A DNA stretch of 64,000 bases from Planctomycetota bacterium (GTDB lineage Bacteria; Planctomycetota; UBA8108; SXIK01): the NCBI GenBank assembly GCA_965223265.1, contig OZ244999.1, forward strand, positions 3,488,001-3,552,000. Direction: 5' to 3'. The position numbers and the translations under genes were made by a program. Position 1 is the stretch's first letter. Each line of letters begins with the position of its first letter. The notes under the pieces are model-generated. The model did not search any database and was not told the DNA's origin. It saw only the letters and a program-made list of their open reading frames with translations. This document shows, one piece after another, positions 27,648 to 33,112 of the stretch.

Positions 27648-27663
27648 CTAGCTCGAGTTTGGC

Positions 27664-29651
27664 GTACGCCGTGAAAAGGCACGAATCCTCAGTGGGTGAG
27701 AATCCCACCCGGCAACTGGTCGCTCCAGCCGGTAGCACCCGGAGCGACGGAGGGAGGTAACGACCTACGTCGAAGTACTTCAGGAAAAGGGTCGCTGGGC
27801 GACCCAGCGAGCACGCAGGCCGTAACGTGAGTGAACGCCGAGCAGGCCTCGAAAGAGTCAATGCAGGAGCCGACCCTCCGCTAAACAGGGGAAGGCTGCC
27901 AACCAATGGACGAGAAGAGCGACAGCATCCAATGGTTCCTGCCGGGGTAGTGGCGATGGCATGCGTGCCAACGGAGATTCGATGCAACACGGGAAACCCC
28001 GACGGTGGCGCGGCGTGAGCGCCAAACCGGAGCTCCGCGAGGAGCCGGCCGGGCCGTCCGGGGCGGCGGATAGGCCCGTAGTACCGCAGACGCCGGGTAA
28101 TGCCGGTTGAGGGAAGGGGCCTTAGTTCAAGGTTAACGTCAGAAGCCATGAGAGCCGGGAGATTGGCATGAGCCTACCAACCCCACCAAAGGTTCGGACG
28201 CTGCAGGCGGCGTTACATACCAAAGCGAAGGAATCGCCCAACTTTCATTTCTATGCCCTCTACGACAAGGTGTATCGACCGGACGTTCTCGAACACGCCT
28301 ACCGCTGCTGCCGTGCCAACGGTGGAGCCACAGGAGTGGACGGCGAGCGTTTCGAAGACATCGAGAGAGAAGGTCTCGAACGGTGGTTGGACGAACTGAC
28401 GAAGGAGCTCAAAGAGAAGAGGTATCGTCCGCAAGCGGTTCGCCGGGTGTATATTCCGAAGGCGAATGGTAAGCAGCGGCCGTTGGGTATCCCAACGATC
28501 CGCGACCGTGTCGTGCAGACGGCAGCCGTGCTGATCCTCGAAGCGATATTCGAGGCAGACCTGCAGCCGGAGCAGTACGCCTACCGTCCCAACCGTAGCG
28601 CTTTGGAGGCCATAGGCAAGATCCACTCGCTACTGAATACTGGCCACACAGAGGTCATCGACGCAGACTTAAGCGGCTACTTCGACACGATCCCACACAC
28701 CGAGCTCATGAAATCGGTGGCACGTCGCATCAGTGATAAACAGGTACTGCATCTGATCAAGATGTGGCTTGTCGCGCCGGTAGAAGAGACGGACGAGCGG
28801 GGTCGAAAACATCGAACGACGCGCAATAAGGACGAGGGCCGGGGCTGTCCGCAAGGCGCTCCGATCTCACCGCTGCTTAGTAACCTCTACATGCGACGAT
28901 TCATCGTGGGTTGGAAGGTGCTCGGGTACCAAAGGCGCTTGCGCGCCCGAATTGTCAACTACGCCGACGACTTCGTGATCTGCTGTCGCGACAGTGCCGA
29001 CGAGGCCATGCGCGTGATGAGGAACATGATGCAACGGCTGAAGCTGACGGTGAACGAGTCAAAGACACGTCAATGCAGCGTCCCGGACGAAACGTTCGAC
29101 TTTCTGGGCTACACGCTGGGAAGGTGCTGGTCGCCTAAGACGGGTCGAGCCTACATCGGCACACGCCCGTCCAAGAAGAAGGTCGTGGGGCTTTGCCGCA
29201 CGATTAGTGAAAAGACCAGCCGTCGCTGGAGTGCCCGCGACGCCAAGGAGCTCGTAGCTGAACTCAACCGAACCATGATCGGATGGGCCAACTACTTCCG
29301 CCTTGGGCCTGTTAGCAAGGCCTATGCCACCGTGGATTTCCACGCCGGCAACCGGCTGCGTCAGTGGTTGTGCCGTAAACACAAAGTGCCGAGTCGAGGA
29401 ACGTCACGATTTCCCGACACATACCTGCACCGCGTACTCGGTCTAGTCCGACTCACTGAACGGACGCGCAACTTTCCGTGGGCGAAAGTATGAACCTTGT
29501 CCGAAAGCCGGATGCGGGAAAACCGCACGTCCGGTTTGATGAGCGGGAGGTGGAAACAGGGCACGGTCTGAGGCTATTTGGCACCGGCAGACGAAAGAGC
29601 CGGAAACGGAAAGTCCTTGGCCTAAACCACTGCGCCACCTCTCGACTCTAC
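27664..29651 (+). mobile_element. Group II intron (IIB-like, RT without endonuclease domain)
   Basis: 5' GTACG; EBS1 GCTAAAC 27880-27886 pairs with exon GTTTGGC; domain V AAGCCGGATGCGGGAAAACCGCACGTCCGGTTT ~29505-29537; 3' end CTCGACTCTAC. Confidence 0.92.
28168..29493 (+). CDS. ltrA: Group II intron reverse transcriptase/maturase
   Basis: GVDG, RRVYIPKANGKQRPLGIPTIRDRVVQ, DADLSGYFDTIPH, GCPQGAPISPLLSNLY, NYADDFVI, FDFLGY, GWANYF; no HNH. Confidence 0.96.
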   Translation: MSLPTPPKVRTLQAALHTKAKESPNFHFYALYDKVYRPDVLEHAYRCCRANGGATGVDGERFEDIEREGLERWLDELTKELKEKRYRPQAVRRVYIPKANGKQRPLGIPTIRDRVVQTAAVLILEAIFEADLQPEQYAYRPNRSALEAIGKIHSLLNTGHTEVIDADLSGYFDTIPHTELMKSVARRISDKQVLHLIKMWLVAPVEETDERGRKHRTTRNKDEGRGCPQGAPISPLLSNLYMRRFIVGWKVLGYQRRLRARIVNYADDFVICCRDSADEAMRVMRNMMQRLKLTVNESKTRQCSVPDETFDFLGYTLGRCWSPKTGRAYIGTRPSKKKVVGLCRTISEKTSRRWSARDAKELVAELNRTMIGWANYFRLGPVSKAYATVDFHAGNRLRQWLCRKHKVPSRGTSRFPDTYLHRVLGLVRLTERTRNFPWAKV

Positions 29652-30194
29652 CGATTCGCGCCGGCCTGGCCGGACGAGTTTCGCGGGGATTCAAAGGCCC
29701 TTTCAACTTTTTTGTACCTTGAAAGCCCTTGTGCATGTTCAATAACTCCTGTCCGGCCCTTCGGGGAACGCCAGGAGCGCCGATGCCCGCGCCCGAGTCG
29801 TTCCTTGGCCTCGACGCTCCTGGCGCTGGCAGGCTCGACGCGAAATGGCCAAACTGGATGAGGATTTGGGCGAGCGAAGCCGAGTCCAAATCCTGAGTTC
29901 AAGGAGCCTCGCGGCTCCTCGTTGGCCGCAGGAGCGACCGTCGGACGTGATGGGAAACGCTTCGATTTGACGGCGAGGTCAGAGGGAGAGGCAGCGGCGA
30001 TAAGGCTCACGCGAGGGAGCCCCAGGAGCGGAATCAACCGCGTGAACGGTGTCTGCGACGTGCTGAGCGCACCGAATCTCGCGTTGGCAGTCGCGCTGGT
30101 CACTGTGGGAGCAGACCGGGGGCGCCCCGCCGTTGGCATGGCGGGTTTTCGGGCGCAGTGGGTCGTTCGGTGGGAGAGTGTTCACGGTGTCTTT

Positions 30195-31326
30195 CTACCG
30201 GGAGTCGCGGAAACCGACGCGATGAAAGACGATCGCAATGACATGTAGCCGGCCTCCGCAGCACGAGCAGAAGGGGTGTTCGGTGGGACTGTCCGTCGTC
30301 GTCGATGGCGCCGCCCTGGCTCCGTTCGCATCGGAATGAATCTGTGCGCCGTCGGCGGGAGGGTTCACTCTAGCGACAAAGACTCGCACCTCGTGGAGGG
30401 AGACGGCGCTTTGCGGACTGAGGAATCCGTAGTGACGCACCTTCTGTAGCCCCCGAGGTAGGACGTGCTGGAGGAAGCGGCGGATGAACTCCAGAGCATC
30501 GAGCTCCATGGTCCGCCACCGCCGACTGCCCGACTTCTTCCAGCGAAAGCGAACGCGACCATCGTCGCAGGAGACGATGCGGGCATTGGAGATCGCTACG
30601 CGAAAGACGTAGCGTGATAGATACGTGAGTGTCGACTCGCCGTCACCGACGGCGCGCGAGTCGGTGACGAAGTTCTCTGTCCACACCGCAGGCGCAATGT
30701 CCTTGAGAAGACCAGCCCGCTGCAGCTCGTGGCGGAATTTGGCGCGAAAGATCTTCGACAGCGCCTTGACCGGCACGAGAAAGTCGGGGCGCGAGGTGAT
30801 CCAGCTCGCACCATCGTCGCTCAAGCCGCCGGCCGGCACCAACACGTGCAGGTGCGGGTGATATGCCAACGCCCGTCCCCAAGTGTGCAGAACCGCGGTG
30901 AAGCCAAAGGCGCGCCGCACCGAGAAAGCGTGGATCGCGTGCGAGCTTCTGAAGCGATTCAGCGGCGGCGCGAAAGAGCGCCCGGTAGCAGGCACGCTGC
31001 TGCGAGCGCACGAAGGGTCGTAGCGTTGCGGGCAGAGTGAATGTAAGGAGAAAGTAGGGCACCTCGAGTCGATGCTGTAATTGCTCGGCGAGCCAGCGCA
31101 CGTTCTTGGAGGACTGACAGCCCGGACAATGGCGGTTGCCGCACGAGCGGGGCGTCCGGTGAGAGCGAGCGCAGCTCTCGCAGCGCCAGCGCACGTAACC
31201 CAGATCGCCAGTGCCACAGGCGCTCAGCAGCGCCAGGACACGACGGTGCTGCAGAGGCACGCTGGAACCGTGACACTCCAGATACTCCTCGCCATAGCGC
31301 GTGAAAATCTCCGCAAGCGACGCCAC
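30195..31326 (-). pseudogene. IS91-family (Y2 HUH) transposase, one frameshift near 30906
   Basis: Zn-binding CESC...SCGNRHCPGCQ, YFLLTFTLP, then frame switch to GFTAVLHTWG...YHPHLHVLV...YLSRYVFRVAISNARI...FLQHVLPRG; extra base in AAA run 30906-30908. Confidence 0.88.
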
Positions 31327-31332
31327 GGTGCG

Positions 31333-32241
31333 CTATTGGCCGGCGTTCGTCCTCGCCGCTTTGCCCTCCTCTGAGCGAGGGCGTACCATGAGCGCGTTGA
31401 TCGTCGCGTGGGCCTGCTCTTCGCCATCACGTGTAAGGTGCAGGTAGATCGACGTAGCCTTGAGCGACCTGTGGCCGAGGTACTTCTGGATAACACGGAG
31501 GTTGACACCAGCCTCGAGTAAGTGTGTCGCATAGCTGTGGCGCAGAGTGTGGGGCGAAACGCGTTTCTTGATGCCAAGCTGCGTGGCGACGCGACGCAAC
31601 GCTGCCTGAGCTGTCTTCCTCGACACGGGCTGCGTGGCCGATCGTCCCTGCTTGTCCCCGCGGCCGCGGGCGGGGAAAAGAAGTCGCGGGTTGCGATGCG
31701 TCTTCCAGTAGCGGCGCAGCGCTTCGAGAGTATCGGGGGGAAGCGGCACATAGCGGTCAGCGGCACCCTTGCCGCCACGAACGTGCACGAAAGAGCGTGC
31801 CGCGTCGACATCTCCCACTTCGAGCGAGATGCCCTCAGAGATCCTCAGGCCAAGGGAGTAGATCATCCAGAAGCAGGTGCGCCACTGCTGGCTGCAGGTC
31901 GCCGCGATGATCTCGTGAACCTCTTCGACGCTGAGGACGTCTGGCAGCTTGGATTCCTTCGGCGTTCGCAAATCCTCCAGCGTCTTCCAGTCGCGCGGCA
32001 CCGTGCGTCTGAAGAAAAATCTCAAAGCGCTGTAGGCGATTTTCAAGGACCCGATAGCGAACTGACGCTCGTGCCTGAGGTGGAAAAGATAGTCGCGGAC
32101 TTGAGTTTCCGAGAGCGTATCGGGAGACTTGTGATAGTGTTTCGCCAGCTGCCCGACGGCCCAAACGTAGACCCTGCAGGTACCGTCGGCGAGACCGGCA
32201 AGTTCCAGATCCTGGAGAAACTTTTGGCGAAGAGGCGTCAT
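31333..32241 (-). CDS. Tyrosine recombinase with N-terminal SAM-like domain
   Basis: MTPLRQKFLQDLELAG...Y; GLRISE, GGKGAADRYV, HTLRHSYATHLLE, LGH, TSIY; lacks the IntI-specific insertion. Confidence 0.93.
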   Translation of the reverse strand: MTPLRQKFLQDLELAGLADGTCRVYVWAVGQLAKHYHKSPDTLSETQVRDYLFHLRHERQFAIGSLKIAYSALRFFFRRTVPRDWKTLEDLRTPKESKLPDVLSVEEVHEIIAATCSQQWRTCFWMIYSLGLRISEGISLEVGDVDAARSFVHVRGGKGAADRYVPLPPDTLEALRRYWKTHRNPRLLFPARGRGDKQGRSATQPVSRKTAQAALRRVATQLGIKKRVSPHTLRHSYATHLLEAGVNLRVIQKYLGHRSLKATSIYLHLTRDGEEQAHATINALMVRPRSEEGKAARTNAGQ

Positions 32242-32424
32242 AGCGTGCTCCTTTCTGAGAGGTTGCTTTCTGCAGAAAGAGCATCATCGACGCCTCGACG
32301 CCTTTACGCCTCATCGAACGGGCCGCAGAGCGAGCACACCGGTGGCCCGAGGCGGCCGGCGATCGTCACCCAGAACGCCTGAACGAACCGGGCCTGCCGC
32401 GAAGCGGCTTCCTTGAACTCGAGG

Positions 32425-32871
32425 TTAAGAATGTCCGTCTCACGGTGAAGACTACCAGCAAATGTACGTGATTGGGCATCACGACGAAGTCGCCCATGTT
32501 GTAACGAACCCCATCGAAGTATAGCAAACTATCAGCGACGATCCTCGACAGCTCTGGACGCTGCAGAACGCAGGTTCCACAACCCTTGTCCAGGCTCTCC
32601 ATATACCGCTTCGCGAACCTCTCATGATACTCGGTGCGCTGTCGCGTCGTGAGGTTCCATGCTTTCTCTGAGAATCTCTCATGGTCTTCGAGATTCCGTG
32701 CTGTGAGAGCCACGTGTCACGGTCCTCGTACCATTGCCGTGCGATCTCCGTTGGGATGGAATCCTCGGTGCGAAATGTAATGAAGTAGGTTGCGGTCGGC
32801 TGAAACCAATGTGGAAGGTTGCCACCACCTGTCACGCGCACTTCAACTCTCGGGTCGAAAAGGTCAAACAT
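32425..32871 (-). pseudogene. N-terminal half of RAYT transposase (frameshifted)
   Basis: GNLPHWFQPTATYFITFRTEDSIP...LDKGCGTCVL...VVMPNHVHLL (HUH); frameshifts near 32680 and 32445. Confidence 0.88.
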
Positions 32872-32937
32872 GCAGAGCGATTTCGAAGACTTGCGATGAT
32901 TCACGTACTCGTGCGTGCCGTCCGGGCTCGCGGGGCG

Positions 32938-33112
32938 ACGGCACACGGCGTGTGCCTGCTACTTTACATACCGCTGCCGACTCGATCTTCAAGGTCGCAG
33001 ACACACACCGCTGTGTGTCGTCTGGCTTTCGCACGCCGAGGCAACGATACTTTAATGCCGCCGTCGTGCCTCACGGACACGTCCGGAACGGCACACGGCG
33101 TGTGCCTGCTAC
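32938..33112. repeat. REP cluster upstream of RAYT
   Basis: ACGGCACACGGCGTGTGCCTGCTAC at 32938-32962 and 33088-33112 (reverse complement of REP at 27137); degenerate inverted copy ~32994-33021. Confidence 0.85.

Follow-up and report, generated by a model that had tools for sequence, protein, structure and literature searches.

Here we describe a discrete mobile element of 2,564 bp at positions 29856-32419 of a 64,000-nucleotide stretch of a Planctomycetota genome. This stretch, referred to below as the window, corresponds to positions 3,488,001-3,552,000 of the genome (G000), which consists of a single contig of 9.18 Mb. The element carries two genes, both on the minus strand, a tyrosine recombinase gene followed by a transposase gene, and it is lodged in the terminal inverted repeat of a 253-bp miniature inverted-repeat transposable element (MITE) whose ends are 21-nt inverted repeats. 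The element is an insertion sequence of the IS91 family and belongs to a subgroup of this family that carries an integrase. Four near-identical copies, differing at about a dozen positions, are present in the genome: copy A in the window, copy B at 3,569,326-3,571,889, copy C at 96,679-99,241 and copy D at 2,247,720-2,250,251.

The limits of the element can be read from sites that it has not entered. The core of the MITE repeat occurs 105 times in the genome; an element or remnant is found in 7 of these occurrences and AACTCGAG is uninterrupted in 85, so that excision of 29856-32419 restores the MITE repeat. All four copies share the right end, ...CCTTGAACT, followed by CGAG, and copies A, B and C share the left end, GGATGAGG, which lies immediately 3′ of AACT. 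An empty site contains one AACT and a filled site two, one of which is possibly the element's own, and no target duplication is made. The MITE is itself bordered by identical 5-nt flanks, that is 5-bp target duplications, in 20 of the 27 copies that have both ends complete. Because AACT stands at both junctions (29852-29855 and again 32416-32419), the start of the insert carries a 4-nt ambiguity. A preceding annotation of the window, made without database searches and referred to here as the sequence-only reading, had proposed both these limits and the repeated AACT. The empty MITE repeats bear out the limits to within that ambiguity, and the two AACT copies lie where they had been placed.

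Protein domain matches confirm the pair of genes that the same reading had recognized, a recombinase and an IS91 transposase; they also reveal a frameshift that had gone unmentioned. In the window copy the transposase is split between an open reading frame (ORF) matching Zn_Tnp_IS91 (30643-31326, minus strand) and another matching Y2_Tnp (30195-31217, minus strand, 1.6e-59). The frameshift consists of one extra T in a T-run at about 30906-30908 and is common to copies A and B. Without the extra T, the transposase frame stays open over 378 codons in copies C and D, and copy C has a 376-aa ORF; both forms are present in contigs of public runs. Since its transposase gene is frameshifted, the window copy is predicted to be unable to move by itself. 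The assignment to the IS91 family is given by the transpos_IS91 model (NF033538; 212.9 and 140.1 bits, above the cut-off of 125), together with PF04986 (201.4 bits) and PF14319 (87.2 bits). In copy C the transposase has the HUH motif HPHLH and the tyrosine pair YLSRY. HPHxH could be read in 14 of 17 homologue rows, the remaining 3 being wrong-frame ORFs, and the Y-x3-Y pair is kept in 18 of the 19 homologous loci covered; in this locus-wide count the last His and the two Tyr were scored, not the first two HUH positions.

The recombinase gene stops 6 nt ahead of the transposase start codon, and its product matches Phage_integrase (2.1e-37) and SAM_4 (7.4e-19). Its nearest NCBIfam models are XerA, the integron integrases and XerD/XerC, all of which it matches below their cut-offs: 183.1 against 220 for XerA, 167.1 against 329.6 for XerD and 158.3 against 335.15 for XerC. 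The integron-integrase models, each matching in two stretches, score 176.6 against 265 (TIGR02249) and 118.8 against 435 (NF011946). These models include the extra segment specific to IntI, which the sequence-only reading had described the recombinase as lacking. The closest solved structures are XerA, VchIntIA and XerD. The catalytic residues R-K-H-R-H-Y are kept in 20 of 21 homologous loci, the remaining one (L055) having K at the first His. Each of the four copies carries this gene within the 2,564-bp unit, whereas in integrons it is fixed on a platform outside the cassette.

Folding of the linear DNA places a stem of 9-10 bp at the ori end and a 5-bp palindrome at the ter end (32396-32408), giving the element the distinct ori and ter ends with subterminal palindromes that characterize the IS91 family. 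When the two ends were joined by script from window slices and then folded, the energy was -27.6 kcal/mol for the plus strand and -25.9 kcal/mol for the gene strand, with z scores from 200 shuffles of -4.8 and -5.5, respectively. In the outer stem of this fold, which is bulged and about 20 bp long, 32396-32418 and 29896-29915 are paired; the inner hairpin sits on this stem. The junction hairpin exists because, in the integrase-carrying subgroup, the ter tip recurs in inverted orientation on the inner side of the ori hairpin. A chance hairpin was considered and ruled out by z scores of about -5 and by covariation of the arms in 14 elements. The sequence-only reading had predicted the hairpin with a shorter outer stem and had held that it forms only on circularisation. 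The outer stem does need the joined ends, but the inner 9-bp stem folds in linear DNA. In integrons, the attC boxes are arranged as R''/L''...L'/R' with the consensus RYYYAAC / GTTRRRY. Compared by eye, the ter tip GTTCAAG departs from this consensus at 2 of 4 degenerate positions, and the spacers are asymmetric. The boxes are not canonical attC; the sequence-only reading had said this of the spacers. The coordinates of the features are collected in Table 1.

Table 1. Features of the element and of its MITE host, in window positions
Feature	Position	Strand	Remark
Host MITE, first 12 nt of left terminal repeat	27652..27663	.	Split from the remainder by a group II intron
Host MITE, body and right terminal repeat to the insertion point, ending AACT	29652..29855	.	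From MITE copies and repeat occurrences
AACT (AGTT on the gene strand), target tetranucleotide at the ori end	29852..29855	+	Start of every tandem prefix unit
Ori module: spacer GGATG, 9-bp stem (29861-29869 / 29886-29894), 16-nt loop	29856..29895	+	
Inverted ter tip with its palindrome, next to the ori module	29896..29915	+	Pairs with 32396-32418 in joined ends
IS91-family Y2 HUH transposase gene	30195..31326	-	Frameshifted here
Tyrosine recombinase gene, Xer/IntI clade, 302 aa	31333..32241	-	
Ter subterminal palindrome, 5-bp stem, 3-nt loop	32396..32408	+	Kept in homologous elements
Ter tip, AGTTCAAGGAAGCC on the gene strand	32406..32419	+	
CGAG, final 4 nt of the MITE terminal repeat	32420..32423	.	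Severed by the insertion

Nine insertion events were counted in the genome: the four full copies, two solitary 49-nt ori units standing in two further MITE copies, two remnants within MITE repeats (at 6,398,722 and 7,550,788) and one remnant outside a MITE. In copy D a deletion between two CCAAA repeats has removed the first 30-32 nt of the ori end, and a further 1-nt deletion lies near the end of the recombinase gene. The non-MITE remnant (5,931,689-5,932,127) is rearranged, with positions 508-808 fused to an inverted 5-145 and an altered ori tip, and its flank begins AGTT. Cumulative GC skew reaches its maximum, the likely terminus, on a plateau at 3.52-3.56 Mb (about window position 32000 to past the window end), and its minimum near 7.95 Mb. 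Copies A and B are oppositely oriented on the two sides of this plateau. The transferred strand is the lagging-strand template in 6 of 8 oriented insertions, too few to count. Among contigs of the four public runs holding the element no circle junction was listed, a result that covers contigs only and counts neither way, and no public RNA run was listed as holding the element.

Target choice is narrow. One position of the 21-nt MITE repeat accounts for eight of the nine events, in a genome that holds 46,523 AGTT sites and 1,036 CTCGAGTT sites, 117 of the latter with the first 13 nt of the MITE repeat. We considered the repeat as a mimic of the ter end and rejected this explanation: when the 30 nt to the left of the insertion point were aligned semi-globally with the 30 nt on the left side of the ter cut, the score was 4.0, a value reached in 373 of 1000 shuffles. 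The same repeats also receive a group II intron. One intron copy lies at 27664-29651 (plus strand) in the left terminal repeat of the MITE copy that bears the element, with Rfam domains D1-D4 at 27690-27830, domains V/VI at 29503-29651 and a reverse transcriptase/maturase ORF at 28168-29493. Other copies are found near 1,894,765, 3,425,835, 4,285,649 and 5,914,891, and in all five cases the intron follows CTCGAGTTTGGC (in one case TTTAGC), at an identical position of the MITE repeat. Two unrelated mobile elements thus land in this repeat. Immediately to the right of the MITE, a Pfam search with two overlapping ORFs (32366-32946, minus strand) gave nothing at E <= 0.001; inspected by eye, they look like a frameshifted REP-associated or IS200-like Y1 transposase (...PNHVHLLV...), a resemblance that is unconfirmed.

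Some copies are preceded by extra tandem units that are informative as to the chemistry of movement. Units of 49, 22 and 49 nt stand upstream of copy C, and copy B has one of 6 nt in this place. All are exact prefixes solely when the element is taken to start at AACT; at least one unit fails when the frame starts at ACT, CT, T or GGATG. The unit ends are unrelated sequences, GTTC, GCGA and GG, and the 49-nt units terminate inside 29896-29915, after GAGTTC. As all tandem units begin at AACT, the nick probably lies 5′ of AACT on the plus strand. The units would arise by a nick, brief displacement synthesis from the 3′-OH and religation of the displaced 5′ end or, alternatively, by premature termination followed by re-insertion. 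In either scenario the duplication of a prefix would need a 3′-OH primer, and since a HUH nuclease leaves one at its nick and a tyrosine recombinase does not, the footprints point to HUH chemistry at that bond. In the AACT frame the true ter cut falls after CTTG and the recurrent 49-nt unit ends after GTTC, the two tetranucleotides published for IS91; we do not rely on this agreement, strand conventions differing among papers.

Relatives of the recombinase at E <= 1e-40 were found in 24 of 401 sampled genomes of the phylum, the present one included, with a best identity of 44%. The integrase, the Zn domain and the Y2 domain are colinear in 19 of the 20 loci fetched (a set that includes four copies of one element), the remaining locus being cut by a contig end. 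The annotated pair also occurs in plasmids of Herpetosiphon and Rhizobium, as the sequence-only reading had said of other genomes. A second four-copy element, in genome G276 and with 40% protein identity to ours, has a ter tip beginning GTTGAAC. In 4 of its 4 copies the 3′ flank begins with GTT; the 5′ flanks are unlike one another and nothing is duplicated. Just within a 75-nt ori hairpin module, the ter tip recurs as an inverted copy of 23 nt. Single-copy relatives, whose ends were predicted from motifs and not from empty sites, have on the ter side a (G/A)TTSAAS tip followed by a GC palindrome and on the ori side an inverted copy of the ter tip 3′ of the transposase gene, a variable long hairpin and a CCYT-rich end. 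The GTT box previously proposed for the ter tip and the target thus recurs in the G276 family, but in two Rhizobium elements ATT replaces GTT at both places, so that the rule for the box is RTT and not always GTT.

Anchored alignment located the inverted ter tip in 13 of 15 integrase-bearing elements (z 1.9 to 12.3) and did not find it in the other two, L054 and L055. The two arms agree at 8-11 of 12 positions in 14 elements. At arm positions 3 and 6 the base varies among elements and matches between the arms in 14 of 14. The covariation of end-to-end complementarity, suggested beforehand as a check on homologous units, is thus present across 14 elements. A blind scan for inverted repeats between the regions upstream and downstream of 5 integrase-less IS91-family and 16 integrase-bearing elements returned chance matches of 10-12 nt in both groups and does not discriminate between them; it ranked the ter-tip repeat first in 7 of the 16 integrase-bearing elements. 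The comparisons drawn here are the anchored ones.

Three loci from this survey deserve separate mention. Two Rhizobium elements with the gene pair, L074 (NZ_CP090100.1) and L075 (NZ_CP072159.1), have no mutual nucleotide similarity. They lie in two different IS630-family elements, each in the left end and at the equivalent site between N and ATTCCCTT, 33-37 nt from the tip. This siting could mean that a nested pair diverged together, or that transposon ends are targeted, as the MITE is here. On an E. coli plasmid (L065, NZ_OQ420465.1) an IS91 ori end directly abuts the ter end of a second IS91, about 180 nt downstream of tnpA, forming a natural head-to-tail IS91 tandem.

According to PMC13181058, members of the IS91 family have distinct oriIS and terIS ends, with one or two palindromes at ori and one at ter, and make no target duplication. 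Their targets CTTG, GTTC or GTCC adjoin oriIS, and terIS is cleaved at GTTC in 3 of 4 elements. Both single-stranded and double-stranded circles are formed, the bottom-strand circle being the functional intermediate, and in IS91, IS801 and IS1294 the HUH transposase alone does the movement (PMC13181058). With IS91, IS801, IS1294 and IS1294b our element shares the Zn domain joined to a Y2 HUH enzyme, the palindromes at ori and ter, the absence of a duplication and an ori tetranucleotide that matches the ter tip. IS91 itself also has a small gene directly upstream of tnpA, orf121, which improves ter cleavage and whose insertion mutants alter site choice (PMC13181058). In our element the gene in this position is instead the 302-aa tyrosine recombinase, which appears to be a conserved and catalytically competent accessory, tightly coupled to the transposase gene. 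Further differences are the inverted copy of the ter tip that adjoins the ori hairpin, not found in IS91 or an IS1294b-like element, and an effective target that is the 21-nt MITE repeat and not a bare tetranucleotide.

The gene pair as such is already known, since it is annotated in Herpetosiphon and Rhizobium and since IS91-family members with a second, integrase-like orf are stated to exist (ISfinder; Siguier et al. 2014, cited in PMC8496243). Such members share with ours the pair and its order, with a best protein identity of 44%. Literature searches of main texts brought up no paper on what the integrase does in IS91-family elements, and the searchable papers gave no account of the ends, junction fold, target choice or recombinase role of integrase-bearing members.

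Three other systems combine comparable parts. Integron cassettes also have an imperfect hairpin on circularisation, GTT/AAC in the crossover window and a recombinase of the same broad clade, but here the recombinase travels in the mobile unit, there is no attI platform, a HUH transposase is present and the boxes are not RYYYAAC/GTTRRRY. Phage CTX pairs a rolling-circle Rep with XerCD acting on folded single-stranded DNA, the recombinase being the host's and the target dif. Xer-integrated elements of this type share with ours a rolling-circle HUH protein, which here too would make single strands on which, once folded, a Xer-type recombinase could act; here, by contrast, the recombinase is encoded by the element, the target is the MITE repeat and there are no phage genes. 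TnpI of Tn4430 is a tyrosine-recombinase resolvase of a replicative transposon and likewise provides a site-specific recombinase beside a transposase gene, whereas our element has no defined resolution site and its transposase chemistry differs.

We consider it rather probable, on balance, that the HUH enzyme carries out both breakage and joining and that the recombinase is an accessory. The Y2 HUH transposase would nick the plus strand at ori beside AACT and remain linked to the 5′ end, and the free 3′-OH would prime displacement synthesis. A second cut at the ter tip would then close a single-stranded circle, and the strand would be pasted next to an RTT-type tetranucleotide matching the ter tip, without target duplication. 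We infer these steps, and with them the role of the recombinase; the assignment to the family, the ends and copies of the element, its target site and the conservation of the catalytic residues are observed. Most likely the recombinase sharpens termination or resolves tandem or cointegrate products, or it adds to the narrow target choice. Several points weigh against this reading. A recombinase with R-K-H-R-H-Y in nearly every homologous locus must, to judge by its residues, catalyse something. The inverted ter tip does not appear in the best alignments of IS91 or of an IS1294b-like element (a control of two), and the repeat may go with the recombinase and not with the transposase. So narrow a choice of site is more than a 4-nt target can explain. 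The four IS91-family elements named in PMC13181058 as shown to transpose all lack a recombinase.

The first three of these points leave some room for a division of labour along the lines of the sequence-only reading, in which the HUH enzyme copies out a single-stranded circle, the recombinase exchanges a single strand of the folded junction at the RTT box, and replication resolves the product. We regard this as unlikely, and it is equally doubtful that the element is a self-contained mobile "cassette" whose own recombinase pastes the folded ter/ori junction at the RTT box of a specific repeat after HUH copy-out. In favour of the division of labour, the junction hairpin is strong and real, with arms that covary. 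By family and by structure the recombinase, whose catalytic residues are conserved, is best matched by XerA, integron integrases and XerD. A target far narrower than a tetranucleotide would be explained by a sequence-specific recombinase, and replication-assisted DNA integration by tyrosine recombinases is known from integron cassettes and from phage CTX (PMC9345347). The ordinary layout of the IS91 family, however, needs no recombinase (PMC13181058). The sequence-only reading took the layout to call for an integron-like reaction, but AACT at both junctions and the completion of the box by the element's first bases are features of the published layout of IS91, IS801 and IS1294 (PMC13181058), and so no integron-like mechanism is called for. 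The transposase keeps both tyrosines, as expected of an enzyme that cleaves and joins. The prefixes of 6, 22 and 49 nt, with their common start and unrelated ends, fit nicking, synthesis and religation, not a recombinase crossover, and the cuts of the 49-nt units would fall on one strand between TTS and AA, with a folded stagger of about 1 bp that is unlike a tyrosine-recombinase core. The integron-integrase scores and the boxes, as described above, also speak against it.

A narrower form of the accessory-recombinase reading takes the enzyme as a resolvase or target-choice factor acting on double-stranded inverted repeats that never pair, which seems to us quite improbable in this exact form. 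Covariation of the arms is equally expected for two copies of one protein-binding site. Termination fails in about 1-14% of events for IS91 and IS1294/IS1294b, and whole-plasmid products of failed termination reached 11-29% in assays (PMC13181058), so frequent a failure that a resolution function would pay; a natural IS91 tandem is present on the E. coli plasmid, and orf121 in the equivalent position already influences both ter cleavage and site choice. There is, however, no defined resolution site, and the arms lie 40-110 bp apart when the ends are joined, a distance greater than an ordinary core site allows. A mismatch at a single position of one element, which would be a G-T wobble on the bottom strand alone, gives a very weak hint that the arms do pair. 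It is hardly credible that the copies were instead spread passively, carried by a transposing host MITE or passed on through recombination among MITE copies, even though every full copy lies inside a MITE copy. Only 4 nt of the MITE tip remain on one side, which leaves no homology for conversion; the outer flanks of the four copies all differ, sister copies A/B and C/D occupy different ends of the MITE, and the ninth event lies outside any MITE.

IS91-type rolling-circle transposition moves neighbouring genes, resistance genes included, and the integrase-carrying subgroup, found in at least three phyla, appears to keep a catalytically intact Xer/IntI-like recombinase welded to the transposase gene. 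The present genome offers a compact system in which to test its function, with an intact copy C, defective copies, a 21-nt site present about 100 times, nick footprints and a conserved junction fold. If the cassette reading were true, the element would choose safe, multi-copy landing sites. Should the recombinase do the pasting, two known chemistries of DNA strand transfer would be combined in one transposon in a new way; should its role be confined to resolution or targeting, that would still tidily tie up a standing loose end of the IS91 family.

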